DNA of 64,000 nucleotides from positions 40,622-104,621 of the forward strand of contig JBBQWP010000019.1 of NCBI GenBank assembly GCA_038210455.1. The letters are read 5' to 3'. Position 1 is the first letter of the stretch; each line of letters begins with the position of its first letter. Shown here piece by piece: positions 36,956 to 61,025 of this stretch. A model generated the notes under the pieces. The model had not been told where the DNA came from and made no database searches. It saw nothing but the letters and a program-made list of their open reading frames with translations. The position numbers and the translations under genes were made by a program. The stretch comes from Pyrinomonadales bacterium (GTDB taxonomy: Bacteria > Acidobacteriota > Blastocatellia > Pyrinomonadales > Pyrinomonadaceae).

Positions 36956-38860
36956 TCATACCACCGTAATGCGTGCGCGAAACGTTGGCGATCCCTTCAG
37001 AGCAAACCACGATACTCCTTCCTGAAGCAGATCGATTTCGAGGAAGTACTCGCCGGGCTGGGCAGGAGCGTTGACGACGAAAGAGAGTGTGGTCTCTTGA
37101 CCGGGAGAAAGATCGGCGGCCAGAGGAGTGCGGCCTTCTTCTTTCGACGCGACTTGTCCGCTCGCGTTCAGCCAATGGCTGCCCATATTAATCTGAAACT
37201 TTCCGGCGCTCCGCTCACATCCGGGCCACACGGTGTCGCCGCGGTTCTTGATCAGCACGCTCAACTTTAGCGTCGCGCCTTTCGGCACGGTTGCGGGAAT
37301 TTCGGGGACTCTGATTTCAGCCCGGAACGCGCTGTCGGGTATTGGCGCGCGAGATCTGGGATGAGCGTCCGCGATGTACAGCGTGTATGGATCGGTTTGC
37401 GCCAGAACTTGCCGGTGAGCACAACTCTCTTCGGTCGAGATGACCAGCGCGTTTGCCGGCGGCGACTCTTCCGGGGCTAGACGGACAAAGTCGCTTAGCG
37501 GAATGCCTTTCAGGGTTGCGTACCAGTAAGCCTGAATGTAAGGCGTAGTCATCGCATCGGCGAGATAGATTGGCCGGGCGCCGTTCGCAACAGCGTTATC
37601 AAAAATCTTCTGCGGATAATCAGCGTCGAAAAGATGTCTCCTCCAGGGCGAGCCTGCCGCTTTGTGATACTGCCACTGAAAGAACGCGCCCTGGGCCAAG
37701 GTCAGAAATACCAGGAGCATTAGCGCTAAACGAATTTCACGCCGGCGGTCGCCTGCTTCGCACAGCCACGCGAACGCGGGTACGGCCAGCACCAGCAGAA
37801 AGACAGGTAACGCGGCCAGACGCAGCATGTGAAAATAGTCGGCAGTGAGAGAGGCCGGCACAATCGCAGCCACCAGCCCGTAGAGAATGAAACGCCACCA
37901 GGCGCTGTCTCGATGATGGCGCAGGACGAGGAACGCGCCCGTCAAAACCAGCAGCATCGTAACTGCGAGCAAGGCGGGTGTGCCGGGAACATGCGCGACC
38001 TGGTAGATGTTAGGATCGCCGCTTATCAGTAGTTTTACAGGATTAAGGTTGGCGGAATAGTGTTTGATAAAGTCCCCGGCGATCTCGGCAACGGAGCTCT
38101 CGGGCGTGATGTAACTGATCAGCTTGAATCGACCGGTGAGCGCGTCGGCGTGCCGGCGTTGAAAAAAAATCATTGGCAGCAGCGTCAGAGTGTATATTGC
38201 CCAGGTTCGCAGGATCGCGGACCAGCGGGCGCGGGTCGCGAAAACCAGGAGACCCAGGGTCAGCAACGGCGCCAGCAAACGACCGATCGAATAGGTGTAG
38301 GTCAACAGCGCCAAGGTCGACGTCAGGCAACCGACATCGAGCCAGCCCCACCTCGCTTTCGTCGAGGCACGCTGTACGGCCAGGAGAAACAGTGTCACCG
38401 CCAACGGATAGAGAGCGACTTCGAAAGCGACACGGCTCAGCTCAAACAACCAGGGCGTTAATAACGCCGACACGGCGACGAGCAAGCCCACATCACGCCG
38501 ATGCGAGATGCGCGAAGCCAGCAGACCCAGCAGTAATGCGCTGCCGATGCAGGCGATCGCGCCCAACATCCGCGCGGTTAAAATACTGGGTCCGGTTAGC
38601 TTGAACAGCGCCGCCAGCAGGTAGACATGAACCGGATTTTTATAATCGCCAAACGCACGGAAAAAGAGCGGCCATGAATTGCCGAACTCATCCTGACCAT
38701 TCTGTGAGATGGTATAGGCGTTGTACGCGACCGATGATTCGTCGATGAAGAAGCCGGCCGGGTTGCGCGTCACACGATAGCTGTAAAGCGTCGCGCCAAG
38801 AACCAGCACGATGGCGAACAACAACGGAAAGCGATAGCGCGCTCTCTCTTGTCTCGTCAT
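36956..38860 (-). CDS. GT-C fold membrane glycosyltransferase (ArnT/PMT family 39-like) with C-terminal beta-sandwich module
   Basis: 634 aa and polytopic. An acidic motif in the first extracytoplasmic loop (FFIDESSVAYNAY) is followed by many TM helices. The last 115 aa (36959-37303) are module copy 1. Confidence 0.7.
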   Translation of the reverse strand: MTRQERARYRFPLLFAIVLVLGATLYSYRVTRNPAGFFIDESSVAYNAYTISQNGQDEFGNSWPLFFRAFGDYKNPVHVYLLAALFKLTGPSILTARMLGAIACIGSALLLGLLASRISHRRDVGLLVAVSALLTPWLFELSRVAFEVALYPLAVTLFLLAVQRASTKARWGWLDVGCLTSTLALLTYTYSIGRLLAPLLTLGLLVFATRARWSAILRTWAIYTLTLLPMIFFQRRHADALTGRFKLISYITPESSVAEIAGDFIKHYSANLNPVKLLISGDPNIYQVAHVPGTPALLAVTMLLVLTGAFLVLRHHRDSAWWRFILYGLVAAIVPASLTADYFHMLRLAALPVFLLVLAVPAFAWLCEAGDRRREIRLALMLLVFLTLAQGAFFQWQYHKAAGSPWRRHLFDADYPQKIFDNAVANGARPIYLADAMTTPYIQAYWYATLKGIPLSDFVRLAPEESPPANALVISTEESCAHRQVLAQTDPYTLYIADAHPRSRAPIPDSAFRAEIRVPEIPATVPKGATLKLSVLIKNRGDTVWPGCERSAGKFQINMGSHWLNASGQVASKEEGRTPLAADLSPGQETTLSFVVNAPAQPGEYFLEIDLLQEGVSWFALKGSPTFRARITVV

Positions 38861-38968
38861 CTTGGAATCTGGTGCCTCCGGCGTTTTATCTTTCGTCAGT
38901 CCAACTCGGAACCGATACTAACAGCGCGGCGCGTAGTAGCATAGACTTCAGTCTGTGAATTTCACCGA

Positions 38969-40417
38969 ATGATGCGAGCAGATAAAGAAAAGGCCGGAGG
39001 TGGATCTTCAGATAGTGTCGCGGGCGTCCCGCCTGTGAATCACGCGCAAGATGCGCGTGCCACCTCCATCACTCGCGTTGAAGTCGTGCTCTTCCTTTTC
39101 CTATGGCTCGGTTACGGAGCGGCGATCAACTCCGACAACCTGGTCAACTTCAACTTGCAGCAGATCGGCGTCGAAGCGATCGTCGAACGCCATCAGTTCT
39201 ATCTGGAAGGCTCATCTGCTCCCGAATTGTTTCCTCAAGGCGATGTGTTCTTGTATCAGGGTCATAAGTACGCGGCCAAGCAGCCCGGTCAGTCAATGGT
39301 GGGCGCGGTAGTGTATTGGGTTCTGCGCGCCCTCGGTTTGCGATACGCGGACAATTACCTGCTGACTTCCGCGCTGGTCACTTTCTTTACTACTTCGCTC
39401 GTTCTGGCGGCGTCCGCGGTTGCGGTCTTCGGGATTTCTCGAAAACTTACAGCAGACGCGCAGGCGCTCTGCTGGCCAATACTGACGACGTTCGCCTACG
39501 CCCTCGCGACAACTGTCTTTGCCTACTCAGGGATCGCACACCACGATGCGCTCGCGACCGGCTATCTCGCGATCGCGTTCTATCTGATTTTCGATCTACC
39601 CCGCGCCGGTTGGGACGGGCGTGCGGAGATTTTCAAGTCAGCAGCCGCCGGGTTGCTGCTCGGTCTCGCTATGACGACATCGATGCTCGTCTTCTTTATG
39701 GTGATTGTCTGCGCGCTTTACTTCCTTTGGCTGTGGCGCTGGAGGTTAATCCCATTCTTTCTGGTAGCAATCCTACTTGGCTTGCTGCCTCTCTTTATCT
39801 ACAACGCGCAAAGTTTTGGCAGCCCATTCCTGCTGCCGAATGTAGTCGGCGCACAGATGTTCTCTGACACTTTCTTTCACTTCAGCGCGAGGAATTTCGG
39901 CAATAAGCTGGTCTGGTACTCGACTATGTTGGTCGTTTATGTGCCGATCGTTCTGGCCGGATTATTTGGCTTGTCGTATTACCCGCTGGCAGTGAAGCGC
40001 ACGCCGTTTTTTCTCGCACTGGTGGCGATGTTGGTCGTGCTGGCGGCCTACATCCTGAACATCAAAACCGGAGGAGATTGTCAATTCGGGCCGCGCTACC
40101 TGCTGCCGGCAATGCCTTTTGCCTGTCTGGGGATCGCCGGTTACAGCTATCTCTCGACTAACGTCGAGCGGCGGGTGGCGGGTGTGATCGTTTTGGTGTC
40201 AGGTGTGGTTTCGTTTGCGATAAACCTGGTGGGTGCCCTGTCTGGTGCGATGTGTTGTCCCGACGGAAGTAATGCATTGCGCAATCAGTTGACGCGACTC
40301 GCGGGAGGCGACGTGCCTCACTTTCCACTGGCGCCGTGGCTGATCGCCCCGCTCTTAATCTGTGCAGCGTTGTTTGTCTGGACCGGCGGCAAAATGAGGT
40401 CAGTACCACCCGCGTGA
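38969..40417 (+). CDS. Polytopic membrane protein, GT-C-like (tentative)
   Basis: 482 aa with at least 10 predicted TM helices. The early loop YQGHKYAAKQPGQSMVGAVVY resembles the PMT_2-type loop. The last codons lie inside repeat 40398-40489. Confidence 0.55.
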   Translation: MMRADKEKAGGGSSDSVAGVPPVNHAQDARATSITRVEVVLFLFLWLGYGAAINSDNLVNFNLQQIGVEAIVERHQFYLEGSSAPELFPQGDVFLYQGHKYAAKQPGQSMVGAVVYWVLRALGLRYADNYLLTSALVTFFTTSLVLAASAVAVFGISRKLTADAQALCWPILTTFAYALATTVFAYSGIAHHDALATGYLAIAFYLIFDLPRAGWDGRAEIFKSAAAGLLLGLAMTTSMLVFFMVIVCALYFLWLWRWRLIPFFLVAILLGLLPLFIYNAQSFGSPFLLPNVVGAQMFSDTFFHFSARNFGNKLVWYSTMLVVYVPIVLAGLFGLSYYPLAVKRTPFFLALVAMLVVLAAYILNIKTGGDCQFGPRYLLPAMPFACLGIAGYSYLSTNVERRVAGVIVLVSGVVSFAINLVGALSGAMCCPDGSNALRNQLTRLAGGDVPHFPLAPWLIAPLLICAALFVWTGGKMRSVPPA

Positions 40418-40489
40418 GCGGGTGGGTCTTGCACTCAACAATCGCTGATCGAGTGCTGGATCCACCCGCTCACGCGGGTGGTACTGACC
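40398..40489. repeat. Hairpin element, family B variant (GGTCAGTACCACCCGCGTGAGCGGGTGG)
   Basis: ggtcagtaccacccgcgtgagcgggtgggtc-(loop)-gatccacccgctcacgcgggtggtactgacc. Confidence 0.75.
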
Positions 40490-40534
40490 GCACTCCTTAG
40501 CCGCAGTGCTTCGGCAGACGAACAACGCGCGCCT

Positions 40535-42328
40535 TCATTTAACGCGATAGAGATAGATCGAATTACCGAAGACGGCTTCGGGCTGAAGTGTGCGGTACGC
40601 CGCGAGAAAATTCACGCGTTGCTCCTCTGACAGTTGGTGTCCATTCTCATCCGCAGAAACAGCGATGACCGAGCCGTTAAGAAAACTCGCGCCGATGGCG
40701 ACGTAATGTGTCTCGGGTATCGTGACGCCGGGCTTTGGAAACATCTCATGATAAGCGATGCCGTATTGGGCCAGCGTGCCCCAGCCACCAGCTACCGCTC
40801 CGACCACGTCGTTCTCTCCGCGCGCGTGAAGGTAAACGGCGAGGTCGCGGGCGTCGTCACCCCATTCCACGTTGGAATCAGATAGGTACCACCAATGCGG
40901 GTGCGCCGAGGCGAGTTGATTCATGTAGGGAATGTAATCCGGATAGGCTCGCAAAGCTTCGGCTGACATCCAACCGAAGGTGACCACGATGAGCGCTATG
41001 GCCAGGTGACGCGGATATTGAACGCGACCCAGGCGCTCGAGCAGCGCGCCCCCGGCGATAAAGAGAAACGGGTAGACCGGCAGAAAATGCCTGATGCCGA
41101 TATTAATGTGGCTGGTCATTGAGATGGCTGCATAGATGACCATCGGAATCACCAACCAGAGAATACGTTTGTCCTTTTTCCGAGTTAATCTCCAGAGGAT
41201 CCAGGCCAGCGCTGCCAGCGTGATGATCAGAAATGGCAGTGATGTCTTCAGGACAAACGCAACGGGGAAGTAATACCACCATCCCAGGAAACTGTATTGG
41301 CCGAGCAGAGACGCTGAGTGTCCGTCACGGTTGTGCAGCCAGACATTGTACTGGCCAAAGAGATAGTAGGTCGGCACAACCTTTGAGCCCGCCTGAAAGA
41401 AAAGCATCCACTGATCAAACGCCTCGGGCGATCTGGTCTGCACCCACTGCACATCCCCCGGTACCAGCGGCGGGCTCTGAAAACGATAAGCCGCATTGAC
41501 CATCAACCACACGAGACACAGAACGAGGCCCGAGTGCAGCAGGACCCGCCGGCGGCTTTCATTAAAGCGCGACGCGAATCCGAATCCCATCAGCGCCACG
41601 CACGCCAGCACTGGCAGAAGCACAACCATCGAGAACTTTGTCAGCAGAGCCAGTCCGCTCACCAGGCCGAGCACGAGCGCGTTCGAGGTCGTTCGGCTTT
41701 GCAAATACTTTCGCAGCGCGAAGAAGAAAAGCAGAAAGGCGAGGGCGGCGGGAAGATCCGTATGCACAATGTGCGCGTGTGCGAGCACTGTTGGTTCCAG
41801 AGTGTAAAGCGCAACCGCAAATAGGGCCGTGCGAACCCCGAAGAGGCTGCGTGCGTAAGCGAAGATCAGAACACCCAGACCGCAAGCCAGCATGATCATC
41901 ATTGCCCGCGTCCAGAATTGAATAGTTTCGGCCCGAGCCCTGTTGTTGGCCCAGAAACGCTGGTCATAGCTCCACCCCAACTCGAGAAAATTTCCCTGCT
42001 GCTCAGCGGCCGTCGGCGGCGCCTCGTTCGGCTGAATCAAAAGGAGTGGCAGCGCGGCCCACATTTTTACCAGCGGGGGATGTTCGTTGTTGAGTTGGAA
42101 TTCGCCGTTGACGAGGTGATAGTATCCAGCGGGAATGTGGACTATTTCGTCGTTGGTGATGTTCTTGCGCGCGATGATGGCGAACATCTGAAGACTCATG
42201 CCCAGCAGCAACGCCGCGCACAGCACTTCAGCCCGACGCGCCCACGCCCACCGCAGCGCTTGCGCCAGTGTTCGTCGCGGCTCGAAGACAAAACTAGTCG
42301 CGAACTCCTGATTCAATGATTCGTCCAT
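40535..42328 (-). CDS. GT-C fold glycosyltransferase, family 39 / PMT_2-like (phospholipid-carrier-dependent)
   Basis: ITNDEIVHIPAGYYHLVNGEFQLNNEHPPLVKMWAALPLL is the characteristic first-loop signature (DE..H...G.........HPPL.K). 597 aa, polytopic. Confidence 0.78.
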   Translation of the reverse strand: MDESLNQEFATSFVFEPRRTLAQALRWAWARRAEVLCAALLLGMSLQMFAIIARKNITNDEIVHIPAGYYHLVNGEFQLNNEHPPLVKMWAALPLLLIQPNEAPPTAAEQQGNFLELGWSYDQRFWANNRARAETIQFWTRAMMIMLACGLGVLIFAYARSLFGVRTALFAVALYTLEPTVLAHAHIVHTDLPAALAFLLFFFALRKYLQSRTTSNALVLGLVSGLALLTKFSMVVLLPVLACVALMGFGFASRFNESRRRVLLHSGLVLCLVWLMVNAAYRFQSPPLVPGDVQWVQTRSPEAFDQWMLFFQAGSKVVPTYYLFGQYNVWLHNRDGHSASLLGQYSFLGWWYYFPVAFVLKTSLPFLIITLAALAWILWRLTRKKDKRILWLVIPMVIYAAISMTSHINIGIRHFLPVYPFLFIAGGALLERLGRVQYPRHLAIALIVVTFGWMSAEALRAYPDYIPYMNQLASAHPHWWYLSDSNVEWGDDARDLAVYLHARGENDVVGAVAGGWGTLAQYGIAYHEMFPKPGVTIPETHYVAIGASFLNGSVIAVSADENGHQLSEEQRVNFLAAYRTLQPEAVFGNSIYLYRVK

Positions 42329-45294
42329 TCAACGCTCGCCGGAGGATAAAAACTGATCACGTCGCCGCGTTCGCGGTTACGGTCGCGCCGATCTTCTATT
42401 TCTTGCCGGCGCTGCTAAATCACCTGGTCCTGGGTCCCGATGACGGGATGCTTTTCAACGTTCCGTTGCGCGTCGCTGCGGCCCAGATCGTTCGGTCGGG
42501 ACATCTGCCGCTCTGGAACCCTTACATTTTCGGCGGCATGCCGATGCTGGCCGCGGCCCAGGGCGGATTGCTGTTTCCGCTGAACTGGTTCTACCTCGGG
42601 TTCTCTCCGGCCGTGGCCACAGACCTGATGGTCATATCGGCGTACATGTTGGCGGCGTCCGGCGCTTACCTCTACGCGCGCCGCACGGGCACATCGATAG
42701 CCGGCGCGATCGCGACGAGCCTGATCTGGCAGGCGGGCGGCTTTCTTATCGGCCAGATTAGCCACATCAACATAGTTCACACAGCCGCGTTGTTGCCATG
42801 GGTGCTTTGGGCCGTGGAGAGATATGTCAGCAACGGCAGGCGCGCGCGCGGTGCTTTGTTGGCCGCGCTCGTAGCTCTCCAGGCTTTTGCCGGTCATCAA
42901 CAGACGCTCTTCTATTCGCTCATGCTGGTGGCGTCGTATGCGATCGTAATGGCGCTCGCTGATTTGAAAAAGCGCAAACGCTATCTGTCGTCGCTCGCGT
43001 TTACCGCGGCCGGTGTGCTGCTGGCCGCGGTGCAGATCGTACCGACGTTCGAGTTGCTGCGCAACAGCCCGCGGGCCGTGGCCACTTATGACTTCTTCTC
43101 ATCGTTCTCGATGCCGGGGAGTTTTGTGGCCACTTTCATTGCGCCGTATGTAATGGGCGGAGGCGATGGACGCCTGTTCCGCGCTCCTTACATTGGTCAG
43201 TTGTACTACACCGAGTACGTCGCCTATGCCGGCGTGTTGGCGATCATGCTGGCGCTCCTGGCGTTGCTGCTCAAGCCCGACACGCGCACAAAATTCTGGG
43301 CGGTGGCGGGACTCTGTTGTCTGGTGCTGGCGTTCGGCCGCGGCGCGCCGCTGTATCTCTACCGGCTGATTTACTACGTGCCGATTCTCAACCTCTTTCG
43401 CGTTCCCGCGCGCCACTTGATGGAGGTCACGTTTGCCATCGCGGTACTCGCTGGTCGCGGGCTGACCTCGCTCACGGCGATGCGGGAAAGCAAGACGGCA
43501 AGGCGACGAGTGTTAATCGTGGCAGCTTCGGTCTTTCTGCTGACGCTGCTGATCGTGACCTGTTGGCGGCCGGCGAGTTTTCATCTGGGTCGAGAAGCGC
43601 CGGTCAGCTTATTGCGCGCTCCTGAATTATTCATGCCCATCCTGTTTGCCGCGTTGAGTGCATGGGCTCTCTGGGTATTCACGCGACAAAGGCGCGGCAG
43701 CACCGCCTTGCTACTCGCAATTCTGGCAATCGACCTGATGATGTGGGGACAGTCGACCGGCTGGTATACATCGAGCGGCAGAATCCCAAAAGAATTCTGG
43801 GGCGTGCCTGAGACCGTCGCACTTCTGCGCGAGAAGGCGCCAGGTGATGCGGCGAGCTATCGAATTCTCACTGCGAGAGCAACATTTGATCCGGCACAGA
43901 CTGTTACAGGTTCACCGGACTGGGTGCTTTGGATCGAGCCCGATGTTTACATGATGTATGGCATTCAAAACGCCGCCGGTTACGATGGCTTTGGACTTGA
44001 TCGCTACAGCCAACTGGCCGGGCAAATGAAATTATGGGGCGAGTTAACTGATCCCAATGCCACGTTGCGCAGCAACAGCCGGGAAATCGATTTATTGAAT
44101 GCGCGGTATCTGCTCTCGATCCGAAAACGAGCTGATGCTGTGCAAGCAGATTCGACGGCTGATGAGCTCAACTCCGCGCCGGCCTTTCCGCAGGCAACTC
44201 AGAATTTTGGTGGCTTCATGTTTGGTCCGAGCGATCTGAACCTGCCGAATCTTGGGTCGAACAAGCGGCTGACGTTCGCGATTCCACCGGTGCCGGCTGA
44301 TCGTATTGCGCTCGTAACCAACCTGTCCTGGGCCGAGGATGTTCCCAACCACACGACGATTGGTCGTCTGCGTCTGAAGGCAAGAGATGGGCGGGTCATC
44401 GAATTCCCGTTGATCGCCGGCGCGGACACCGCCGACTGGGCCTATGATCGACCGGACATTCGCGCTCGCATTAAACATCAGCGGGCTACGGTCGCGGCGA
44501 GCTATGACGTCAGCGACGCTCAACACAAATATCAGGGCCACACCTACGTTGCTGCCTTCGGCCTGCCTGAAAAGACGGTGATAGAGAGTGGTGAGATCGA
44601 GCTTGAGCCACAGACTCGCTCGCCGAACTTACTCCTGACTGTCTTTCGCGTATCATTCATTGATGCTAGCCAGGGAAAGTCATACCCGCTCAGTCGCGAT
44701 TTAATTAGAGTGGAAAGTACGACGTCAGAGACGGAACCGTTGCGCGAAGGGAAGGATGATCGCTGGACGCTCCTGGGCCAGACGCGCTATACGAATGTTT
44801 ATCAGAATGCGCGGGCCTTGCCGCGTGCGTGGCTGGCGCCTGAGACCCGCGTGCTCGACGACGGCGCGATGCTTCAGGTGATTCGAACGGGGCTTCTGCC
44901 CGACGGATCAAAGTGGGATCCGCTGCACACCGCTTTGATCGAAGCTGCGCCGGAGAATCCTTTGTCGACGGCCGCGCCGGATGGGCACGCGGAAATCACC
45001 GCGTACGAACCCAACCGAGTAAGCTTGGTGACGCACTCGAGTGGCAATTCAATTCTGGTGCTGAGCGAGAATGATTATCCCGGCTGGCGTGCATACATCG
45101 ATGGCCAATCTGCCGAAGTGTTGCGCGTCAACTTTGCTTTGCGCGGAGTTCAAATCCCAGGCGGCGATCATCAAGTTAGTTTTGTTTACCGTCCGTGGTC
45201 GGTGATGAGTGGGCTGTTGCTGTCGCTGCTGACGGGAGCGGGTTTGATAGTCTTGAGCCGGCGGAAGGTTAGGTCAACGACGGTAATTTCATAG
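42316..45294 (+). CDS. YfhO-family membrane glycosyltransferase-like protein
   Basis: GHLPLWNPYIFGGMPMLAAAQGGLLFPLNWFY near the N-terminus and ENDYPGWRAYIDGQSAEVLRVNFALRGVQIPGGDHQVSFVYRP near the C-terminus are both YfhO hallmarks. 992 aa. Confidence 0.8.
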   Translation: MIRPFNARRRIKTDHVAAFAVTVAPIFYFLPALLNHLVLGPDDGMLFNVPLRVAAAQIVRSGHLPLWNPYIFGGMPMLAAAQGGLLFPLNWFYLGFSPAVATDLMVISAYMLAASGAYLYARRTGTSIAGAIATSLIWQAGGFLIGQISHINIVHTAALLPWVLWAVERYVSNGRRARGALLAALVALQAFAGHQQTLFYSLMLVASYAIVMALADLKKRKRYLSSLAFTAAGVLLAAVQIVPTFELLRNSPRAVATYDFFSSFSMPGSFVATFIAPYVMGGGDGRLFRAPYIGQLYYTEYVAYAGVLAIMLALLALLLKPDTRTKFWAVAGLCCLVLAFGRGAPLYLYRLIYYVPILNLFRVPARHLMEVTFAIAVLAGRGLTSLTAMRESKTARRRVLIVAASVFLLTLLIVTCWRPASFHLGREAPVSLLRAPELFMPILFAALSAWALWVFTRQRRGSTALLLAILAIDLMMWGQSTGWYTSSGRIPKEFWGVPETVALLREKAPGDAASYRILTARATFDPAQTVTGSPDWVLWIEPDVYMMYGIQNAAGYDGFGLDRYSQLAGQMKLWGELTDPNATLRSNSREIDLLNARYLLSIRKRADAVQADSTADELNSAPAFPQATQNFGGFMFGPSDLNLPNLGSNKRLTFAIPPVPADRIALVTNLSWAEDVPNHTTIGRLRLKARDGRVIEFPLIAGADTADWAYDRPDIRARIKHQRATVAASYDVSDAQHKYQGHTYVAAFGLPEKTVIESGEIELEPQTRSPNLLLTVFRVSFIDASQGKSYPLSRDLIRVESTTSETEPLREGKDDRWTLLGQTRYTNVYQNARALPRAWLAPETRVLDDGAMLQVIRTGLLPDGSKWDPLHTALIEAAPENPLSTAAPDGHAEITAYEPNRVSLVTHSSGNSILVLSENDYPGWRAYIDGQSAEVLRVNFALRGVQIPGGDHQVSFVYRPWSVMSGLLLSLLTGAGLIVLSRRKVRSTTVIS

Positions 45295-45349: not shown

Positions 45350-45495
45350 TTTAGCCCGGCGTTTCAACGCCGGGAAATAGTCGGGTGACGTTCGTTCGTC
45401 GCATAGCGACGTTTGAACTCACATCTTTCAGACGTCGCTACGCGACGTGCACGTTCTTGCTGAACTCATCCCCGGCGTTGAAACGCCGGGCTAAA
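45350..45495. repeat. Nested palindromic MITE-like element (TIR TTTAGCCCGGCGTTTCAACGCCGGG)
   Basis: tttagcccggcgtttcaacgccggg ... ccccggcgttgaaacgccgggctaaa form the outer TIRs. The inner pair is cgtcgcatagcgacgtttgaa / ttcagacgtcgctacgcgacg. Confidence 0.7.
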
Positions 45496-45525
45496 CTCAG
45501 GTCGGCGCTACGCGCCGAAAAATCT

Positions 45526-46308
45526 ATGGGCCCGGCCGAAGAAACCCACTCAATCGCGATGGCTAAACCCCGTCACGTCGAAAGCCCGGCGGACTGCTTT
45601 TTCTATCACACGATGGATCTGCCCGGCCTGGGTGAGGTGAAAGGTCATTGGGACCTGCGCGGCAGGTTCAATGAATACATTGGCGGCGTAAGTCTCGCCG
45701 GTAAGTCAGTGATCGACATCGGGGCCGCGACCGGCTTCCTCAGTTTCGAAGCTGAGAAGAGCGGCGCGACGCGAGTGCTCTCTTTTGATATAGACGACCC
45801 GCGGCAACAAGCGTTTCTTCCATTCAAAGACAAACTCTACTCCTGCGATCCCGCGCGCTGGGCGGAAGAGTACGGCGCGGAAATCGAACAATGGAAGAAT
45901 GCTTACTGGCTCTGTCACCGGCTGCTTGATTCACAGGCGGAGGTTTACTATGGCGACATCTATGAACTGCCTCGGGAACTGGGCCAGTTCGATGTCGCGA
46001 TCGTGGGTTCGGTGCTGGAGCACTTGAGCGATCAAATCTCGGCGCTGGCTTCGATCGCGCGGTTGACGAAAGAAACGATCATCATTGTCTCGCCCATGCT
46101 CGACACAGCCGAAAGAATCGCGAAGTTCGGAGCCCTCGCCGATCATCCCGAGAACGATTTCACGTGGTGGATTTATTCGGAAGGTGTTTACCGCGAGGTT
46201 TTGAAAATGCTTGGCTTCAGCATCACCAGCATCACCCAGGCTGAGTACTACTATCATCACGGTGAGCGCTTCGAGACGCGACATACGATCGTCGGCGTGC
46301 GGGGTTGA
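45526..46308 (+). CDS. Class I SAM-dependent methyltransferase
   Basis: Motif I KSVIDIGAATGFLSFEAEKSGA and FDVAIVGSVLEHL. The start is trimmed from 45385 because that extension is encoded by the repeat element. Confidence 0.8.
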   Translation: MGPAEETHSIAMAKPRHVESPADCFFYHTMDLPGLGEVKGHWDLRGRFNEYIGGVSLAGKSVIDIGAATGFLSFEAEKSGATRVLSFDIDDPRQQAFLPFKDKLYSCDPARWAEEYGAEIEQWKNAYWLCHRLLDSQAEVYYGDIYELPRELGQFDVAIVGSVLEHLSDQISALASIARLTKETIIIVSPMLDTAERIAKFGALADHPENDFTWWIYSEGVYREVLKMLGFSITSITQAEYYYHHGERFETRHTIVGVRG

Positions 46309-49175: not shown

Positions 49176-49718
49176 TTATTTCACTACCGTGATCTTTGCC
49201 TTCGTGGTGGGCGAACCTTTTTCGCCGAACCACGCAACGCCTTCCTGCACCATATCCAAACTGAGAATGTATTCGCCGGGTTTCTTTGGGGCAGTGATTT
49301 GAAGAGTCGTTTCAGTTTCTTCGCCCGGGTTGAGGTCTTTGGTCATGCCGTTGTGCCCTTCCGCTTCTGACGTAGGCTTTCCGTCTTTATCGAGCCAGCG
49401 ACTGCCGACGGCTATGTAGAACTTGTTATCCGGCCGATTGTTTGTCTCGCCACCGAGCCGCCGCCAAATAACGTCGCTCGTGTTTTTGACTTTTAGGGTT
49501 ATGACCTCTTTCTGTCCGGCGCGCAGCTTTGAGGGTGGATCGGGCACAGTGATCTGCGCCTTGAAACCGCGTTCGACCAGCGGGCCCGCTGCGTTTGAAA
49601 TCGCGGTGGCCCTCTCAGCCGGCGAGGCGGTGTTGGCCGTCTGCTTCGGACTGCAACCCATTGCTAATGTCACAAATCCGATAACACTCGCAAGCAAAAC
49701 AAATCTCAACTTCATCAT
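49176..49718 (-). CDS. Lipoprotein consisting essentially of one copy of the beta-sandwich module
   Basis: Signal peptide with lipobox LAMGC and a short linker. Bases 49179-49538 encode module copy 3 (KNTSDVIW...GSRWL...DLNPGEE...APKKPGEYILSLDMVQEGVAWFGEKGS). Confidence 0.75.
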   Translation of the reverse strand: MMKLRFVLLASVIGFVTLAMGCSPKQTANTASPAERATAISNAAGPLVERGFKAQITVPDPPSKLRAGQKEVITLKVKNTSDVIWRRLGGETNNRPDNKFYIAVGSRWLDKDGKPTSEAEGHNGMTKDLNPGEETETTLQITAPKKPGEYILSLDMVQEGVAWFGEKGSPTTKAKITVVK

Positions 49719-52088: not shown

Positions 52089-53101
52089 CGATCCTCGTGC
52101 GGCGCCGCGGCGGTCTGTTCATGATTCGCGGCCTCATCGCCAACGCGCACACCCAGGCCGGTGCGCATTTCGTCAGTTAGCACCTGCAACTGATATTCAA
52201 ACTCTTGTGAGCGGCGCGCAATTGAATGCAGTACGAGCCCGACGGTGAGCGAGAGCAGCCCGCACAACATCAGGCCCACCGCCAGCACGGCCAGCGGCAG
52301 ACGAGCAGCGATGCCTCGATGAATCGAGTCGATGATCGAAAAGAGACCGGGAACCAGCGCCATTACAAGCAGCGCGATCCCGACGCTGCCAAAGAAGGTC
52401 AAAGGCTTATAATCACGAAAGAGGGCCAGAATCGTGTTGAGAATAAGCGCGCCGTCACGAACAAACTTGATCTTCGAATGGCTGCCCGCGGGCCTGGACG
52501 TCAACGTCGTGGGAACTTCCACAATGCGCATGCCGCGCGCAACAGCCTTGATCGTAAGTTCAGTTTCAATCTCGAATCCGCCGCCGAATAAGGGCAGTCC
52601 CTTAACAAACCTCCGGTTGAAGGCTCGATAGCCCGAAAGAATATCAGTCAGCCTGACTTTGAAGATCGAGTTTAGTAGCGCGAGTACGAGACGGTTGGCC
52701 CAGCGGTTCAGTTGGCGAAATTCACTTTGGGTGGCCACGTGCAGGCGCGAACCAACTACCATGTCGGCCTCGTCCGCAATGACCGGCGCTAACAGGCGAT
52801 GAACCTCAGCGGCCGGATAAGTGCCGTCGCCATCAACCATGATGTAGACGTCGGCTTCCACGCGGCGGAACATCGACTGCACCACGTAGCCTTTCCCCTG
52901 TCGCGGTTCGCGCAGGACGGTTGCGCCCGCTGCCAGCGCGCCGGCCACTGTGCCATCCGTCGAGTTGTTGTCGAAAACGTAAATGTGCGCCGCGGGCAAC
53001 TCGGCGCGAAAGGCCTGGACCACTTCACCAACTGTCGGCGCCTCGTTGTAGCAGGGGATTAAGACAGCGACCCTCGGCGATGTGTCTGCGGTTGATTCCA
53101 T
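52082..53101 (-). CDS. GT2 polyprenyl-phosphate glycosyltransferase (GtrB/ArnC/DPM1-like)
   Basis: VAVLIPCYNEAPTVGEVV, a DGDGTYP-type motif (VDGDGTY), and two C-terminal TM helices as in GtrB/ArnC. Confidence 0.85.
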   Translation of the reverse strand: MESTADTSPRVAVLIPCYNEAPTVGEVVQAFRAELPAAHIYVFDNNSTDGTVAGALAAGATVLREPRQGKGYVVQSMFRRVEADVYIMVDGDGTYPAAEVHRLLAPVIADEADMVVGSRLHVATQSEFRQLNRWANRLVLALLNSIFKVRLTDILSGYRAFNRRFVKGLPLFGGGFEIETELTIKAVARGMRIVEVPTTLTSRPAGSHSKIKFVRDGALILNTILALFRDYKPLTFFGSVGIALLVMALVPGLFSIIDSIHRGIAARLPLAVLAVGLMLCGLLSLTVGLVLHSIARRSQEFEYQLQVLTDEMRTGLGVRVGDEAANHEQTAAAPHEDRC

Positions 53102-56246: not shown

Positions 56247-57299
56247 TCATCCCGCCGCGGTGATTAGCTTTTCAACTACAGACTCCCACGAGAGGTTCAT
56301 CGACTTAAGCTTTTCCAGTCCTCGCTCACCCATTGTGCGCGCTCGCGCGCGATCGGAATAAAGCGAATCCAGAGAGTCAGCGATCGCTTGCGGGTCAGGC
56401 TCGGAGATTAGCCCAGTGCGTTCGTGCTCAACCAATTCCGCGGCGCCGCCGCCATCGCTGGGGACCACCACCGGCTTACCGGACAGCATCGCTTCCAACG
56501 TCACATAGCCGTAGTCTTCGTCAAACGGGAGATAGCCGACTCCCAGCGAGTTCGCATACAAATCAATCAGTTCATCGTCAGTGACAAAGCCTCGCATCGT
56601 GACGCGGTCGCCCACGCCGTGAGTCTTGATCAAGCTTTCGTAGTGCTTCACGTCAGCAGTGTTACCCGCCAGGATCAATTTGACCGGTGTGCGCGCCAGG
56701 TGCATCGCTTCGATCAGGAGCTCCTGACGCTTCTGTGGTTCCAGACGGCTGGGATAAAAAATGTAATCACCCTGCTCGCCCGTTTTCAGTCGGCCGGCCA
56801 GTGGCGGCGGATGATACAGCGGTTCGCTGGCGATGTTGTTGTAGCGCTTTAGTCTTTCGGCGACGGCTATTGAATTGGCAAAGACTTTACGGGCCTCTGG
56901 TATGAAGCGTTCGTCGCAGTGCTTAACCCATTCACGAACGCGAACGCCTTCGGGGTAAGTCGAGAGATCGTCGAACGGCGTGCCCCAAAGATTATAAGCC
57001 GCACGATGCTGGTGCAGGATCCACAGCACCTTTCTTTCGTGCGCGACCAGATACGCGGGAAATTTCATGCCGATTACGAGGTCGATCGGCTGTCCGTTGG
57101 CAGAGCTTAGATCCAGCATGCGCCACGCCATCGCACTGCGCATGATCTCAGTCGGCGGATACCATTTGAATGGGAGAGCGACGATCTCTGCTTTGTAACC
57201 GGCGGCAGACAGCGCGCGACGCAAGCCTTCGACGTGCGACTCAGCGCCACCCGTGGTGAAGGGGACTTGCGTGGTGCAGATGAGAATGTTTCGGATCAT
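56247..57299 (-). CDS. GT4-family glycosyltransferase (GT-B fold)
   Basis: 350 aa. EPQKRQELLIEAM and the E..YGYVTLEAMLSGKPVV motif of the Glycos_transf_1 domain. Confidence 0.85.
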   Translation of the reverse strand: MIRNILICTTQVPFTTGGAESHVEGLRRALSAAGYKAEIVALPFKWYPPTEIMRSAMAWRMLDLSSANGQPIDLVIGMKFPAYLVAHERKVLWILHQHRAAYNLWGTPFDDLSTYPEGVRVREWVKHCDERFIPEARKVFANSIAVAERLKRYNNIASEPLYHPPPLAGRLKTGEQGDYIFYPSRLEPQKRQELLIEAMHLARTPVKLILAGNTADVKHYESLIKTHGVGDRVTMRGFVTDDELIDLYANSLGVGYLPFDEDYGYVTLEAMLSGKPVVVPSDGGGAAELVEHERTGLISEPDPQAIADSLDSLYSDRARARTMGERGLEKLKSMNLSWESVVEKLITAAG

Positions 57300-57318: not shown

Positions 57319-58692
57319 TCAGAGGTCAGAGGTTAGAGGGTTTTTCTGACCTCCGATCCCTGACTTCTGACCTCTGATTTCTATATTGCACACAGCTATA
57401 GACAATTCCCGATCATCACGCGTCGCGTCGTTTGTCGGACGTGCTTGCCAGGTGCGATCGGCGCGAATCTCCAGCTCGAACTCTCCTTCAGCAGCTAAAG
57501 AGTTGGGAACCGCCACGCGCAGGTTTAGCCACGAGTGACTGAAGAGCGAGAAGTGCGAAAGCCGGACGCCGTTCAGCACCATCTCAAGCGTGACCGGACG
57601 TGCCCGCAGATCGGGTAGGTGCGTAGTCAGATCGAGGGCGATCTCTGAAACCTCGGCAACCTGAAACTTTACCCGGCCGCGCTCACCCATCCACCGGGCT
57701 ACCGGCGGCAGCAGGTTTGGTTCGTACCAGCCATCGTCAAAGACAACCTGGCTATTTCGATCGAGACACGGCAGCAAGTCTGCGGTCTCACGGCCTGCCG
57801 AGAGACCACTGCGATCGCGATGCTCGTTATAAAAAGGTCCGAGTAACGCGTCCGACGCCTTCAGAAAAACGTACAGACCCGCCTTGGGCAGTGGAATGCC
57901 GAGATCCGACACTCTGCTGAATACATAACCCATCGCCATATCGAACGCGCGACGTTCTTTGAAAGACAGGCCCCGAAGATATTCAAGAAAGTCTGCTTCA
58001 AACTTCAGGCCATACCCATCTGCCTGCTTCAGAAATTCTTCGCTACTCAGGCAGAGGGTGTAGCGCGGTTCAAAGGCGACGTGCTGAAAAACTTTGAGAA
58101 AGCGCGTGGCGTGCTCCTGCTCCTCTTCCAGCCCGACGTGCCCATCGACTTCGATAAAGCGCCGCAGTTCTTCGGGACTCATCTCTGGGTAATCTTTTCG
58201 CGAGCTGCGGTCCGTGCACTCGATGCCATGCATGGTTACGCCGCCGGGACGAAGGACGCGCTTTACTTCGGCCAGCACGGCGTCCTTGTCTCCAAACTCT
58301 ACGTGACCCAGAACGTCAAGACTCACGACGTAGTCGAAACTGCCATCGTCGAAGGGCAGACGCGAAAGGTTTGCCGTCAGAGCCAGATCGTAACCATTGC
58401 GCTTCGCCGCCAGCACGCATTCGGGAGACACATCAACGCCGGTGAGAACTACATGCTTACGCTTCAAGAGCGCGAGCATCCCAGCGCCGCAACCCAGATC
58501 GAGCACCGACGATCCGGCGCGCACATTGTCATAGACCCACATGGTGCGAGCAAATCGCATATCAAAGCGATCCAGCGGCTTGAAGTAACGCGCGTCCAAC
58601 ACCTCGTCGGAAACGAACTTGGTGCGATAAAACTCAGCCAGGTCGTTGATCCCGGCGCGCGTGTAGAGATCGTTTTTCTGCGAGTCTGACAT
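57319..58692 (-). CDS. Class I SAM-dependent methyltransferase with extra C-terminal beta-rich domain
   Basis: Motif I SVLDLGCGAGMLALL, then FDYVVSLDVLGHV and LRPGGV. The last ~20 codons lie in the hairpin 57309-57381. Confidence 0.8.
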   Translation of the reverse strand: MSDSQKNDLYTRAGINDLAEFYRTKFVSDEVLDARYFKPLDRFDMRFARTMWVYDNVRAGSSVLDLGCGAGMLALLKRKHVVLTGVDVSPECVLAAKRNGYDLALTANLSRLPFDDGSFDYVVSLDVLGHVEFGDKDAVLAEVKRVLRPGGVTMHGIECTDRSSRKDYPEMSPEELRRFIEVDGHVGLEEEQEHATRFLKVFQHVAFEPRYTLCLSSEEFLKQADGYGLKFEADFLEYLRGLSFKERRAFDMAMGYVFSRVSDLGIPLPKAGLYVFLKASDALLGPFYNEHRDRSGLSAGRETADLLPCLDRNSQVVFDDGWYEPNLLPPVARWMGERGRVKFQVAEVSEIALDLTTHLPDLRARPVTLEMVLNGVRLSHFSLFSHSWLNLRVAVPNSLAAEGEFELEIRADRTWQARPTNDATRDDRELSIAVCNIEIRGQKSGIGGQKNPLTSDL

Positions 58693-58704
58693 GGGACGAG
58701 ATAA

Positions 58705-58767
58705 GTGGCACAGACTTTAGTCTGTGATTACCTGGCAGGACCAATCACAGACTAAAGTCTGTGCCAC
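58705..58767. repeat. Double palindrome, family D copy 2
   Basis: gtggcacagactttagtctgtga-ttacctggcaggaccaa-tcacagactaaagtctgtgccac. It fills the spacer between the coiled-coil gene and the methyltransferase. Confidence 0.75.
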
Positions 58768-58773
58768 TGACTT

Positions 58774-59724
58774 TCACTTTTCGCCGTTAGATAGTGACTT
58801 TTCCAGATTATCCAGCCGCGACTCAATGACGCGCCGGCCGCGGTCTGCAGCCACTGACGCTTCGCTCGCTTCGAGCGAGAGCTGCTTGAAACAGACACGT
58901 TGCTCTTCACGCAGTTGCTGATCGCTCTCGCGCAGCTCGCCGGCAAGCCCCGCAAGTTGCGAGGTCATTGCCATGCGTGCCGCATCAATTTCTTCCCTGA
59001 TCGCCGCAGCGGACTCAGTCGCCCGCGTTTCCATGGCTGCGCTGCGCGCTTGCGAGTCGGCATCGCTCTTTCTGATCTCAGTGGTCAGGACTTCGATGCT
59101 CGCTCGCAAGGCAATCAACTCTCGATCACGGAGGTCGAGCTCTTCGCGCCAGCTTTCACTTTCTTTCCGTAGCTCAGCCCCAAGCTCAGCCCCAAGCTCG
59201 CGAAGCTCGCTAAGCTCAGCCCGAAGCTCGCGAAGCTCAGCCCGAAGCTCAGCGCGAAGCTCGCGAAGCTCAGCGCGAAGCTCAGCGCGAAGCTCAGCGC
59301 GAAGCTCAGGAAGCTCAGCGCGAAGCTCAGCCCGAATGCCGGCAATTTCCTGCCCGTATGCCGAAAGCGCGTGCAGAGTCTCGGCCAGCGCATGATGGAC
59401 GGCCGAGTTGAAGTTGACTTGCTCCCACGTAAACCAATGGCTCATGGATTTGAGCCGGGCTTTGATCCATAGCTCGAGGCGCGCCGTGCCGCCCTTTCGA
59501 TTACTGTACATTGGCGGCAGCCGGTCCCAGGCGCGCGAGGTGGTAGTTAAGTGAGCAGACATCCGGATGAGCGATTCACCATTTCCGTTTTCCGCATTAG
59601 CGTGCGCTAGAGAAGTTTTGGCCGTCTCACTCTGAACGGGCGTTACCGGCACGCCACCCGGATCGTGATCGGCGCGGATGCGCTCGCGAATTTCGTTGAG
59701 GATGCTTTCTACGTCATTAATCAT
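58774..59724 (-). CDS. Coiled-coil protein with in-frame AELR/ELR tandem repeats
   Basis: 316 aa. The N-terminus is MINDVESILNEIRERIRADH. The central run is AELRAELPELRAELRAELRAELRELRAELRAELRELRAELSELRELGAELGAELR. The rest is heptad-like and charged. Confidence 0.75.
   Translation of the reverse strand: MINDVESILNEIRERIRADHDPGGVPVTPVQSETAKTSLAHANAENGNGESLIRMSAHLTTTSRAWDRLPPMYSNRKGGTARLELWIKARLKSMSHWFTWEQVNFNSAVHHALAETLHALSAYGQEIAGIRAELRAELPELRAELRAELRAELRELRAELRAELRELRAELSELRELGAELGAELRKESESWREELDLRDRELIALRASIEVLTTEIRKSDADSQARSAAMETRATESAAAIREEIDAARMAMTSQLAGLAGELRESDQQLREEQRVCFKQLSLEASEASVAADRGRRVIESRLDNLEKSLSNGEK
59171..59333. repeat. Imperfect tandem DNA repeat (12-nt AGCTCAGCGCGA units mixed with 9-nt units) inside the coiled-coil CDS
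   Basis: Read directly: agctcagcccca agctcagcccca agctcgcga agctcgcta agctcagcccga agctcgcga agctcagcccga agctcagcgcga agctcgcga agctcagcgcga agctcagcgcga agctcagcgcga agctcagga agctcagcgcga agctcagcccga. Confidence 0.85.
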
Positions 59725-59726
59725 AG

Positions 59727-61025
59727 CTAGACTGTTTGGGGTAACTCTTCCTGGACATTCAACGCCGCTGCGCTGGGTATATGCCGGGCGCTTACAGTTG
59801 CGTTGAGATTGGCGATGCCTTCGGTCACCACTTCGCTGGCGACCCGGAAAAAACGCGCGCCGTCAATCCAGTCGAAGGCTTCACCATTACGGTTATGGAC
59901 CGCGCAGGTGATCGAGTAATCGTCCACGCCCAACCAGCAGTTGAAAGAAAAAATAACTTCGAGCAGATCGCCACGGCCCACTGCGCCAAACTCGATCTGC
60001 TGCTCTTTGGTGTTGGTGCCGTAGGCGCTGATGCCGTGGCGATTGCGAATTAGAAAACCGACTATCGGATCGTCAAGATCAGTATTGACCCGGGCTAGTA
60101 TCCGCATCGTCAAAGGCTCTCCGGTCTCGACCGTCTCCACCCGGCGCTGCGCCGCATCAGCCAAATCGGCCGCCAGGATTTCGGCGCTGCCATCGCCATG
60201 ACGATAAGTGTAGCTCAGCGGCTCTAAACTTTCGTCGTCGGGAATCGCAGGTTCGCCGGCAGCGGCGGCGGAGTCAGCCAGGAAGGCGCGTTCGCGCGCC
60301 ATGATGATCTTCTGATAGTGATTGAGCACGTCAACCGGGCGGCCATCCGCCGCGATTCTGCCGTCGTTCAACAGGATCGCCCGCGAGCAGAGGGCCCGCA
60401 CCGCCCCCAGGTCATGCGACACAAACAGCACGGTGGTGCCGGACTCCTGCAGATCTTTGATGCGGCGCAGGCAACGATGCTGGAAGACTGCATCGCCAAC
60501 GGCGAGCGCCTCATCGATGACCAGGATGTCAGGTTCGACGCTCGACGCGATCGCGAAGGCTAAACGCACGTACATGCCGCTGGAATAAGTCTTAACCGGC
60601 TGATAAATGAACTGGCCAATTTCGGCGAACCGTTCGATCTGTGGGAGCAGCGCGTCGGTGGCTCGCCGCGTCAGTCCCAGCAGAGAGGCGTTCATGTAAG
60701 TGTTTTCGACCCCGGTAAACTCCGGATCGAAACCGGCTCCCAGCTCCAGCAGCGCGGCTATCCGGCCATGATGCCAAACGCTTCCATGGGTGGGTTCCAG
60801 AGTGCCCGAAATTATCTGTAAGAGGGTCGACTTGCCGCAACCGTTGGGGCCGACGATGCCGACCGTCACGCCCTGTTCGATCTCAAAGCTTACTTCCTGG
60901 AGGGCCCAGAATTCTTTGTGCCGCCGCATGCGGCCGCGGGTCAGCGACTCTTTCAAGCGATCGCCGGGCCGCGCGTAGGTCCGGTATTGTTTCGCCACGT
61001 TTTCTGCGCGGAGGACCGTAGTCAT
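59727..61025 (-). CDS. Polysaccharide ABC-transporter ATP-binding protein (Wzt/TagH-like) with C-terminal beta-sandwich extension
   Basis: Walker A GPNGCGKST, signature YSSGMYVRLAFA, Walker B ILVIDEAL. A C-terminal extension of about 190 aa is arranged like the Wzt carbohydrate-binding domain. The start is trimmed to ATG 61025. Confidence 0.85.
   Translation of the reverse strand: MTTVLRAENVAKQYRTYARPGDRLKESLTRGRMRRHKEFWALQEVSFEIEQGVTVGIVGPNGCGKSTLLQIISGTLEPTHGSVWHHGRIAALLELGAGFDPEFTGVENTYMNASLLGLTRRATDALLPQIERFAEIGQFIYQPVKTYSSGMYVRLAFAIASSVEPDILVIDEALAVGDAVFQHRCLRRIKDLQESGTTVLFVSHDLGAVRALCSRAILLNDGRIAADGRPVDVLNHYQKIIMARERAFLADSAAAAGEPAIPDDESLEPLSYTYRHGDGSAEILAADLADAAQRRVETVETGEPLTMRILARVNTDLDDPIVGFLIRNRHGISAYGTNTKEQQIEFGAVGRGDLLEVIFSFNCWLGVDDYSITCAVHNRNGEAFDWIDGARFFRVASEVVTEGIANLNATVSARHIPSAAALNVQEELPQTV

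Follow-up and report, generated by a model that had tools for sequence, protein, structure and literature searches.

A conserved Pyrinomonadaceae gene cluster encoding six GT-C-type membrane proteins, a Wzt-type ATPase and secreted DUF4214 proteins

A 64-kb stretch of DNA from a Pyrinomonadales bacterium, a soil acidobacterium in the family Pyrinomonadaceae (64,000 nucleotides of contig JBBQWP010000019.1, assembly GCA_038210455.1; referred to below as the window) carries a gene cluster of about 27 kb, which runs from position 36,956 to the right end of the window and encodes six polytopic membrane proteins, here called A to F, together with glycosyltransferases (GTs), S-adenosylmethionine (SAM) methyltransferases, the ATPase of an ATP-binding cassette (ABC) transporter and a secreted protein. 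All six membrane proteins are of the GT-C type, with support that differs in strength from protein to protein. The cluster genes are syntenic in more than 40 related Pyrinomonadaceae contigs, and the arrangement is therefore not due to chance. Given the GT-C identity of the membrane proteins, the polyprenyl-phosphate type of the GT2 enzyme and the O-antigen type of Wzt, the most economical reading is that of an ABC-exported polymer combined with extracytoplasmic glycosylation, which a first-pass annotation made by a model from the DNA letters alone had already put forward. We tentatively propose, with a confidence that falls just short of even, that the genes form a single conserved system producing a glycan layer on the cell surface of Pyrinomonadaceae, in which a methylated glycan would be exported by an ABC transporter and elaborated by GT-C enzymes in the periplasm. 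The genes lie in the following order, with no intergenic gap longer than 323 nt:

36956..38860, minus strand: A, GT-C enzyme of PMT_2/GT39-like type that ends in an FW (NBR1-like) immunoglobulin (Ig) domain (orthologues, acidic residues)
38969..40417, plus strand: B, GT-C-like membrane protein specific to the locus of this genome (profile comparison)
40535..42328, minus strand: C, PMT_2 family GT-C enzyme (Pfam PMT_2)
42316..45294, plus strand: D, GT-C enzyme of the YfhO family that has a large extracytoplasmic domain and ends in a transmembrane (TM) helix (Pfam YfhO)
45385..46308, plus strand: MT1, SAM-dependent methyltransferase (Methyltransf_31, _23, _11)
46446..49070, minus strand: fusion of a GT4 enzyme, a SAM methyltransferase and an FW domain, cytoplasmic (Pfam)
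49176..49718, minus strand: small exported FW-domain protein, probable lipoprotein (signal-like N-terminal helix ending LAMGC)
49818..52088, minus strand: E, orphan enzyme of GT-C fold that ends in an FW domain (AlphaFold2 (AF2) model and Foldseek)
52082..53101, minus strand: GT2, polyprenyl-phosphate sugar synthase (AglJ/DPM1/ArnC/GtrB type) with two C-terminal TM helices
53424..56093, plus strand: F, GT-C-fold enzyme with a C-terminal DUF4214 region (AF2 model and Foldseek)
56247..57299, minus strand: GT4 glycosyltransferase, cytoplasmic (Glycos_transf_1, 1.5e-28)
57319..58692, minus strand: MT3, SAM methyltransferase with a C-terminal extension of ~290 aa of undefined role (Methyltransf_11, 6e-19)
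58774..59724, minus strand: coiled-coil protein with an (A/R)ELR tandem repeat (coiled-coil-type Pfam matches alone)
59727..61025, minus strand: Wzt, ATPase of an ABC transporter that ends in a Wzt_C carbohydrate-binding domain and has no adjoining Wzm
61204..64000, minus strand: secreted TIGR03118/Calx-beta/CHRD/DUF4214 protein (hereafter CHRD-type), its N-terminus beyond the window (Pfam and NCBIfam)

The first-pass annotation had drawn this island from 36956 to 61025. Its start stands, whereas its end does not, as the cluster runs past 61025 and includes the CHRD-type gene.

The six GT-C-type membrane proteins

All six open reading frames (ORFs) are present exactly where they had been annotated, each with at least eight hydrophobic segments (8-15 per protein). 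Their designation as GT-C-like is borne out by Pfam PMT_2 for C, YfhO for D, the orthologues for A, a profile link for B, and AF2 models with Foldseek for E and F. Profile hidden Markov model searches of the window ORFs, one of the checks that the first-pass annotation had proposed, confirmed the families of C and D directly; E and F have no sequence-family match at all. C matches PMT_2 at 2.2e-10 and D matches YfhO at 1.5e-14, both above the gathering score, the latter over only the last ~80 model positions; YfhO is matched by 11/11 D orthologues as well. D also gives weak matches to PgfM2 and PgfM1 that lie far under the NCBIfam cut-offs (39 bits versus 1500). When Pfam was searched at E-values up to 10, no GT-C match appeared for A, B, E or F. 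Protein A thus has no direct Pfam match of its own, while among its listed orthologues, which are 55-85% identical, the majority bear PF13231, a GT39 or ArnT-like name, or both. That one of the six might be a Wzy polymerase or ligase was considered and rejected, the sole hint of such a function being a match of A at an E-value of 0.3. C and the orthologues of A have a PMT_2 domain, and no MIR domain was found.

B has no Pfam match and a weak NCBIfam match to the LA_3751/3752 putative glycosyltransferase family. Its own family comprises 584 cluster representatives, the nearest 51% identical, and aligns with the C family by hhalign at 95-96% probability over ~240 columns; weak PMT, GT87, PMT_2 or TMEM260 matches are present in 10/61 B-family members. 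In the genome loci of relatives fetched around E, no counterpart of B was found.

E and F have no match in Pfam, NCBIfam or PDB sequences, even as family profiles, and PDB sequence searches with A, E and F and with the B, D, E and F family profiles returned nothing meaningful. Precomputed tags of PF19830 (DUF6311) on F orthologues were not reproduced by hmmscan of 55 family members and are not relied on here. AF2 models were built on orthologue alignments, and comparison with solved structures covered E and F. The E model has a predicted local distance difference test score (pLDDT) of 81.3 and a predicted TM-score (pTM) of 0.76, the F model a pLDDT of 72.2 and a pTM of 0.59, and the AF2 secondary structure of each contains at least 12 long helices. 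For the membrane part of E, every Foldseek match is a GT-C enzyme, with ArnT first (2.8e-5) and then AftA, Pmt4, STT3, PglB, ALG3, AftB and PimE, while its C-terminal part matches the FW domains of NBR1 and ILRUN. For F, the top 21 matches are all GT-C (STT3 and other oligosaccharyltransferase (OST) structures, DPY19, AftD, PglB, AftA and PMTs), with E-values from 3.6e-5. The proposed comparison of predicted structures with ArnT, PglB and PMT folds thus gave GT-C matches for E and F, the two proteins compared.

The six had been described as paralogues, and this description does not hold. By BLAST, the membrane domains of A-F show no mutual similarity, and the fetched relatives contain no counterpart of B. 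At least three or four lineages are represented among the six proteins, which are not close paralogues. Some distant links are visible at the profile level: the TM part of E aligns with the B family by hhalign at 90%, and the F family has a weak link (31-76%) to the YfhO-like D family. A profile match of 99.9% between E and A was discarded, as it reflects the shared FW domain alone; with FW removed, the probability falls below 1%.

Acidic residues that are invariant or nearly so follow TM1 in all six family alignments: D40/E41/D57/E58 in A, D92 in B, D60/E61 in C, D42/D43 in D, D106/D110 in E (D110 invariant) and D69/D72/D83 in F. We regard these as putative catalytic residues. Residues 81-84 of F read WWDY (window 53664-53675) and lie in the first extracytoplasmic loop, with W81-W82-D83 invariant and Y84 nearly so. 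The WWDYG signature of STT3, PglB and AglB sits in the C-terminal domain; as the location differs, the likeness may be coincidence.

Donor synthesis, assembly enzymes and shared accessory domains

The rest of the annotated inventory, namely one GT2, two GT4 domains, three SAM methyltransferase domains and a Wzt with Wzt_C, was confirmed by Pfam and NCBIfam searches. The GT2 gene lies directly upstream of E, abutting it on the same strand. Its product matches TIGR04182 (AglJ-like) at 7.5e-71, with a score of 239 bits that is below the equivalog cut-off of 325; it also matches PpgS and dolichyl-phosphate-hexose transferase models, its nearest solved structures are DPMS (5mlz) and ArnC, and its TM segments are at 239-257 and 272-290. 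A single GT2 donor synthase for the whole set had been considered the oddity of the locus. This is correct for the present genome and fails as a defining feature, as relatives have two or three AglJ/PpgS/ArnC-like GT2s, one of which weakly matches PgfS, and some have UbiA/DprE1-type genes. In three related loci (L010, L011 and L013) a UbiA-type gene and then a DprE1-type gene stand beside F, which is itself duplicated in L011 and L013; the L011 UbiA is decaprenyl-phosphate phosphoribosyltransferase-like (1.7e-121) and its partner a DprE1-like oxidase (4e-106). Together, two such enzymes are known to supply GT-C enzymes with polyprenyl-phospho-pentofuranose donors (PMC11127046). Donor synthesis is thus modular across related loci, and the genomic association with GT2 or UbiA/DprE1 genes is what bears on the putative use of polyprenyl-phosphate(-diphosphate)-linked donors by A-F. 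In the whole window, no small multi-TM ORF or Pfam match pointed to a flippase of the GtrA, small multidrug resistance (SMR) or multidrug and toxin extrusion (MATE) type.

Wzt is identified by ABC_tran (4.6e-21), Wzt_C (4.2e-32) and the Aquifex Wzt structure 8dku (2e-81), and its orthologues begin MTT(V/A)L. As had been annotated, no Wzx, Wzy, Wzz, Wzm (ABC2_membrane) or WecA/WbaP is present among the substantial ORFs of the window, nor is a GtrA-like protein, and in 24 long related loci no Wzm stands next to Wzt. One relative, L089, has an ABC2_membrane gene (1.1e-21) 8.5 kb from Wzt on the opposite strand. The lineage therefore has a partner for Wzt, which in the present genome must lie outside the window. 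The L089 gene belongs to an operon (L089:387-6610, minus strand) divergently upstream of the CHRD-Wzt module. The products of this operon are a PD40 beta-propeller protein of 891 aa, a protein with Peptidase_M10 and CarboxypepD_reg domains, a methyltransferase bearing a Trm112p-like zinc ribbon, and Wzm; like-sized ORFs occur in the same order in L065, L096 and L104, the Pfam assignments being those of the L089 ORFs.

Next to Wzt come the coiled-coil gene and then MT3. The (A/R)ELR units of the coiled-coil protein are encoded by ~15 tandem copies of a 12-nt repeat at 59167-59336, and the length of this protein varies (316 aa here versus 252 aa in L025, a close relative). The coiled coil of WbdD is a length-variable molecular ruler, which this repeat protein recalls. 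MT3 has no WbdD entry among the 60 matches listed and no kinase domain. The fusion protein, 54-85% identical across all relatives, matches Glycos_transf_1 at its N-terminus (1e-8), Methyltransf_23 (1.8e-21) and N_BRCA1_IG (6e-6), and shows neither a signal peptide nor any convincing TM segment. MT1 adjoins D in relatives too.

The first-pass annotation missed two features of the cluster, namely its invariant linkage to CHRD/Calx-beta/DUF4214 genes and the accessory domains shared among its proteins. An FW domain of ~100 residues (Ig-like, NBR1 type, Pfam N_BRCA1_IG) is common to A, E, the lipoprotein and the fusion protein; the four domains are 28-38% identical, that of A being 34-38% identical to those of E and the lipoprotein, and that of the lipoprotein 38% identical to those of A and E. 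In relatives, the lipoprotein gene always adjoins E. As the fusion protein needs SAM and nucleotide sugars and lacks a signal peptide or anchor, its FW domain is cytoplasmic. The presence of FW domains on both sides of the membrane is best explained by binding to the glycan, the sole molecule that would travel that route. In the same manner, the C-terminus of F is 39% identical to the DUF4214 end of the neighbouring CHRD-type protein, and DUF4214 is matched by 13/55 F-family members. We infer that FW and DUF4214 are binding modules for the acceptor glycan. GT-C enzymes bearing acceptor-binding carbohydrate-binding modules are documented (PMC11127046), and an RTX-DUF4214 protein is reported to bind lipopolysaccharide O-antigen (preprint 10.64898/2026.09.02.748959); the latter report makes it plausible that F holds its acceptor through DUF4214 and that CHRD-type proteins dock on the finished glycan. 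Orthologues of the CHRD-type protein carry signal peptides. In the window its frame is open to the edge, a TTG start being listed at 63936, and the TIGR03118 match begins at model position 201, which indicates that the gene is cut by the window edge and does not start at that TTG.

Conservation and genomic setting of the cluster

The comparison of gene neighbourhoods, a further proposed check, brought out the synteny on which our reading draws. Many loci fetched around E have the order Wzt, coiled-coil gene, MT3, GT4, F, GT2, E, FW lipoprotein, GT4-methyltransferase fusion, MT1, D, C, (GT2) and A. In addition, 24 long metagenome loci were fetched around Wzt. CHRD-type genes, in one to five copies, lie directly upstream of Wzt in 23/24 of these, and Wzt is followed by the coiled-coil gene and then MT3 in 24/24; after MT3, where the contig reaches, come GT4, the fusion gene or MT1, and then GT-C genes in variable order. 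The invariant core consists of the CHRD-type gene(s), Wzt, the coiled-coil gene, MT3 and GT4. This linkage of the modules persists where the identity of Wzt is 70-95% and that of E 40-77%. Relatives of E within this range were found only in metagenome-assembled genomes labelled Pyrinomonadaceae, Blastocatellia or Acidobacteriota/Acidobacteria, with one labelled merely 'bacterium'.

Several variations accompany this conservation. In L025 a second CHRD-type gene lies between the lipoprotein gene and E, both copies having signal peptides. A further GT-C type, a PIG-V-like Mannosyl_trans2 protein, is inserted in the cluster at L016:8494-9807 and L083:18178-19395, so the GT-C complement varies between genomes. 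In L009 the gap of ~1.4 kb between an upstream gene ending in DUF4214 and Wzt holds two small opposite-strand genes of undefined role (L009:676-1493). The divergent genes C and D share a 13-nt 5' overlap at window 42316-42328, which is also present in the relatives L002, L004, L008 and L009, both N-termini being conserved from the first Met; with such an overlap, each promoter would have to sit within the other gene. A consensus scan for promoters and terminators gave promoter-like counts near the shuffled expectation and nothing usable.

To the left of the cluster, positions 1-36.7 kb of the window hold housekeeping and regulatory genes, among them those for a resistance-nodulation-division (RND) efflux pump, seryl-tRNA synthetase (SerRS), SecA, TonB-like proteins, lysine biosynthesis and a hybrid histidine kinase. 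The GC content is flat across the window (0.53-0.61) and gives no sign of a mobile island; together with the housekeeping flanks and the family-wide synteny, this led us to reject an origin of the cluster from a mobile element. Just left of the cluster are genes for a low-molecular-weight phosphotyrosine phosphatase (window 32746-33222) and a PAS-GAF hybrid histidine kinase/response regulator (34179-36743). Polysaccharide loci frequently include a Wzb-like phosphatase; neither Wzc nor Wza is present here.

A proposed pathway, its precedents and its alternatives

Based on these observations, we propose the following model for the locus, with the substrates and the order of the steps that we infer. 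First, the GT4 enzymes, one of them fused to a methyltransferase and FW, would build a lipid-linked glycan in the cytoplasm, starting from an initiating transferase encoded elsewhere. The three SAM methyltransferases would O-methylate or cap this glycan, and the coiled-coil protein may work with MT3 as a terminator or ruler. Wzt_C would recognise the finished or capped chain, which Wzt would then export with a Wzm encoded outside the window. In parallel, GT2 would load a sugar onto polyprenyl phosphate, and the flipped lipid-sugar would be the donor with which A-F add side chains or extensions to the exported glycan at the periplasmic face. Binding of the acceptor glycan during these steps would fall to the FW domains (on A, E, the lipoprotein and the fusion protein) and to the DUF4214 of F. 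Finally, the secreted CHRD/Calx-beta/DUF4214 proteins would dock on the finished glycan through DUF4214.

A polymer that is made in the cytoplasm, exported by an ABC transporter and decorated by GT-C enzymes that a GtrB-type synthase supplies is an established paradigm, which also covers streptococcal rhamnopolysaccharides, teichoic acids and Klebsiella O2 antigens. It has been described for O-antigen pentofuranose side chains (PMC11127046), and the GtrA-GtrB-GtrC, CsbB-GtcA-YfhO, GacI-GacL and GT136 pentofuranose systems, the last in Citrobacter O antigens (PMC11127046), share with the present locus a GtrB/DPM1-type GT2, which here too would make lipid-sugar for GT-C modification of an exported polymer on the outside. 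In such multi-component transmembrane glycosylation systems the GT-Cs may likewise carry C-terminal acceptor-binding modules, and the UbiA/DprE1-type pentose route recurs in loci related to the present one. In contrast to them, the present locus has not one GT-C but six, drawn from several lineages, lacks a GtrA, SMR or MATE gene, and has FW and DUF4214 domains in place of the known carbohydrate-binding modules, and two of its enzymes, E and F, match no sequence family.

On the export side, the likeness is to ABC-dependent O-antigen pathways with chain-terminating methylation, of which the E. coli O8/O9a system (Wzm-Wzt-WbdD-WbdABC) is an example. The locus shares with these, and with Aquifex Wzm-Wzt, a Wzt bearing Wzt_C, GT4s, SAM methyltransferases and a coiled-coil protein beside Wzt. 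However, Wzm does not adjoin Wzt here, a kinase domain is lacking, the coiled coil stands as a protein of its own and a large GT-C set is joined to the module; MT3 and the separate coiled-coil protein, which are adjacent and invariant, may correspond to a WbdD-type terminator and ruler. A parallel for the secreted proteins is Psh, an RTX-DUF4214 protein of Pseudomonas putida reported to bind O-antigen (10.64898/2026.09.02.748959), which is likewise secreted, ends in DUF4214 and is encoded near O-antigen genes, much as the secreted proteins here flank the glycan locus. The N-terminal domains here are TIGR03118, Calx-beta and CHRD rather than RTX, no type I secretion system is encoded in the window, and DUF4214 occurs on the GT-C enzyme F as well.

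Several points weigh against our proposal. Wzm, an initiating transferase and a lipid-sugar flippase are absent from the window and from within 10 kb in the closest relatives, so both export and donor flipping would rest on unlinked genes. The targets of the methyltransferases could be lipids or proteins, and PMT-like and YfhO-like enzymes can also glycosylate proteins. The TM-scores of the Foldseek matches of E and F are modest (0.37-0.53 on the target), though the hit lists are homogeneous. A periplasmic position for the FW domains of A and E is assumed by analogy with other GT-C enzymes; a crude count by the positive-inside rule proved too noisy for locating the C-terminal domains and was inconsistent for A. 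Finally, glycan binding by FW and DUF4214 is putative, and in eukaryotes FW is reported to bind proteins.

Protein O-glycosylation is, in our judgement, a rather unlikely alternative. In this case A, B and C (PMT_2-like) and D and F (YfhO-like) would transfer sugars from the GT2-made donor directly onto the CHRD-type or other envelope proteins, or one GT-C would be an oligosaccharyltransferase for an ABC-exported, methyl-capped glycan, as in S-layer glycoprotein synthesis. The S-layer glycans of Geobacillus follow an ABC-dependent route in which a methyltransferase-glycosyltransferase fusion adds a methyl cap. Furthermore, CHRD-type genes stand upstream of Wzt in 23/24 long loci with a second copy inside the L025 cluster, the best NCBIfam model for GT2 is an enzyme of an archaeal S-layer glycoprotein pathway, and F is structurally nearest to STT3/PglB oligosaccharyltransferases and the C-mannosyltransferase DPY19. 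The membership of A and C in a family named after protein O-mannosyltransferases points the same way, except that PMT_2 membership need not mean protein substrates, since the substrates of ArnT and of many bacterial members are lipids or glycans. The weak matches of D are to PgfM1 and PgfM2, enzymes of streptococcal protein glycosylation (PMC12041528); that Pgf system, comprising the GT2 PgfS with PgfM1/PgfM2, is alike in joining a GtrB-like GT2 to YfhO-type GT-Cs, whereas the matches here are far below cut-offs and no Ser/Thr-rich target was identified. In addition, six enzymes exceed the need of direct protein mannosylation, Pfam scans of the window found no Wzy_C/PglL-type O-oligosaccharyltransferase, and the FW domain on a cytoplasmic GT4-methyltransferase is hard to square with an exported folded protein as the shared ligand.

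Also unlikely, and by our estimate slightly more so, is the polymerisation of a lipoglycan in the periplasm in the style of lipomannan and lipoarabinomannan, in which the GT4s would make a short lipid-anchored primer in the cytoplasm, the GT-Cs would polymerise and branch most of the glycan outside from polyprenyl-phosphate sugars, and Wzt would export only the primer or a separate polymer. The assembly of mycobacterial lipomannan, lipoarabinomannan and arabinogalactan (Ppm1, PimA/B, PimE, MptA-C, EmbA-C, AftA-D and UbiA/DprE1; PMC3485146) likewise joins many GT-Cs on polyprenyl-phosphate donors to GT4s, and the inventory here, with the lipid-sugar synthase and the UbiA/DprE1 genes of relatives, mirrors it (PMC3485146 and PMC11127046). 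The relatives' pathway resembles that for decaprenylphosphoryl arabinose (DPA), and the structural neighbours of our orphan enzymes include AftA, AftB and PimE for E and AftD and AftA for F. Six enzymes would also suit polymerisation and branching better than single side-chain additions. On the other hand, there is no sequence-level orthology, the host is Gram-negative, the genes form one locus, and methyltransferases and a Wzt_C-bearing exporter are prominent; Wzt, the methyltransferases and the coiled-coil protein would suit a finished, capped cytoplasmic polymer better than a primer. Processivity cannot be read from sequence, and this alternative overlaps with our proposal, from which it differs mainly in the share of the glycan made outside. 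Least probable by far, and in our opinion very improbable, is that independent envelope-glycan genes became neighbours with no common product, for although B is genome-specific, the gene order in the GT-C part varies between relatives and the Wzt and GT-C modules are sometimes arranged differently, these modules remain linked over 70-95% (Wzt) and 40-77% (E) identity and share FW and DUF4214 domains, GT2 and E abut on one strand, and the overlapping divergent starts of D and C are conserved.

Returning to the ABC-exported, periplasmically elaborated glycan that we favour, a bolder form of it can be stated, which we consider unlikely as a whole. The locus would then make a self-contained glycan coat with its docking proteins, the methyl-capped glycan being rebuilt in the periplasm after ABC export by as many as six GT-C enzymes: E, and F with its relatives, would found new GT-C families, FW of the NBR1 type would be a new bacterial glycan-binding module that tracks the polymer on both sides of the membrane, and DUF4214 would anchor the tandem families of secreted Calx-beta/CHRD proteins, as well as F, to this glycan and give an S-layer-like surface in Acidobacteria.

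Whether the system is an undescribed one, as had been suggested, has two answers. Literature searches found no description of this locus, and some of the listed orthologues, those of F among them, have no functional name. Its logic, by contrast, is that of an established paradigm (PMC11127046), and as it matches known multi-component glycosylation systems no principle is overturned. What is unusual is the combination of six GT-Cs of several lineages, two of them without a family, an orphan Wzt and no linked flippase, with recurring FW and DUF4214 accessory domains and an obligate linkage to tandem secreted Calx-beta/CHRD/DUF4214 proteins.

Acidobacteria rank with the most abundant soil bacteria, and their envelope glycans are almost unstudied. 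The locus joins three elements that are rarely combined, namely an ABC export module for a capped polymer, heavy extracytoplasmic glycosylation and secreted DUF4214 families. If our proposal is correct, it would add new GT-C families to CAZy-type classification and would give concrete, testable roles to DUF4214 and the bacterial FW/N_BRCA1_IG domain, both of them widespread orphans.

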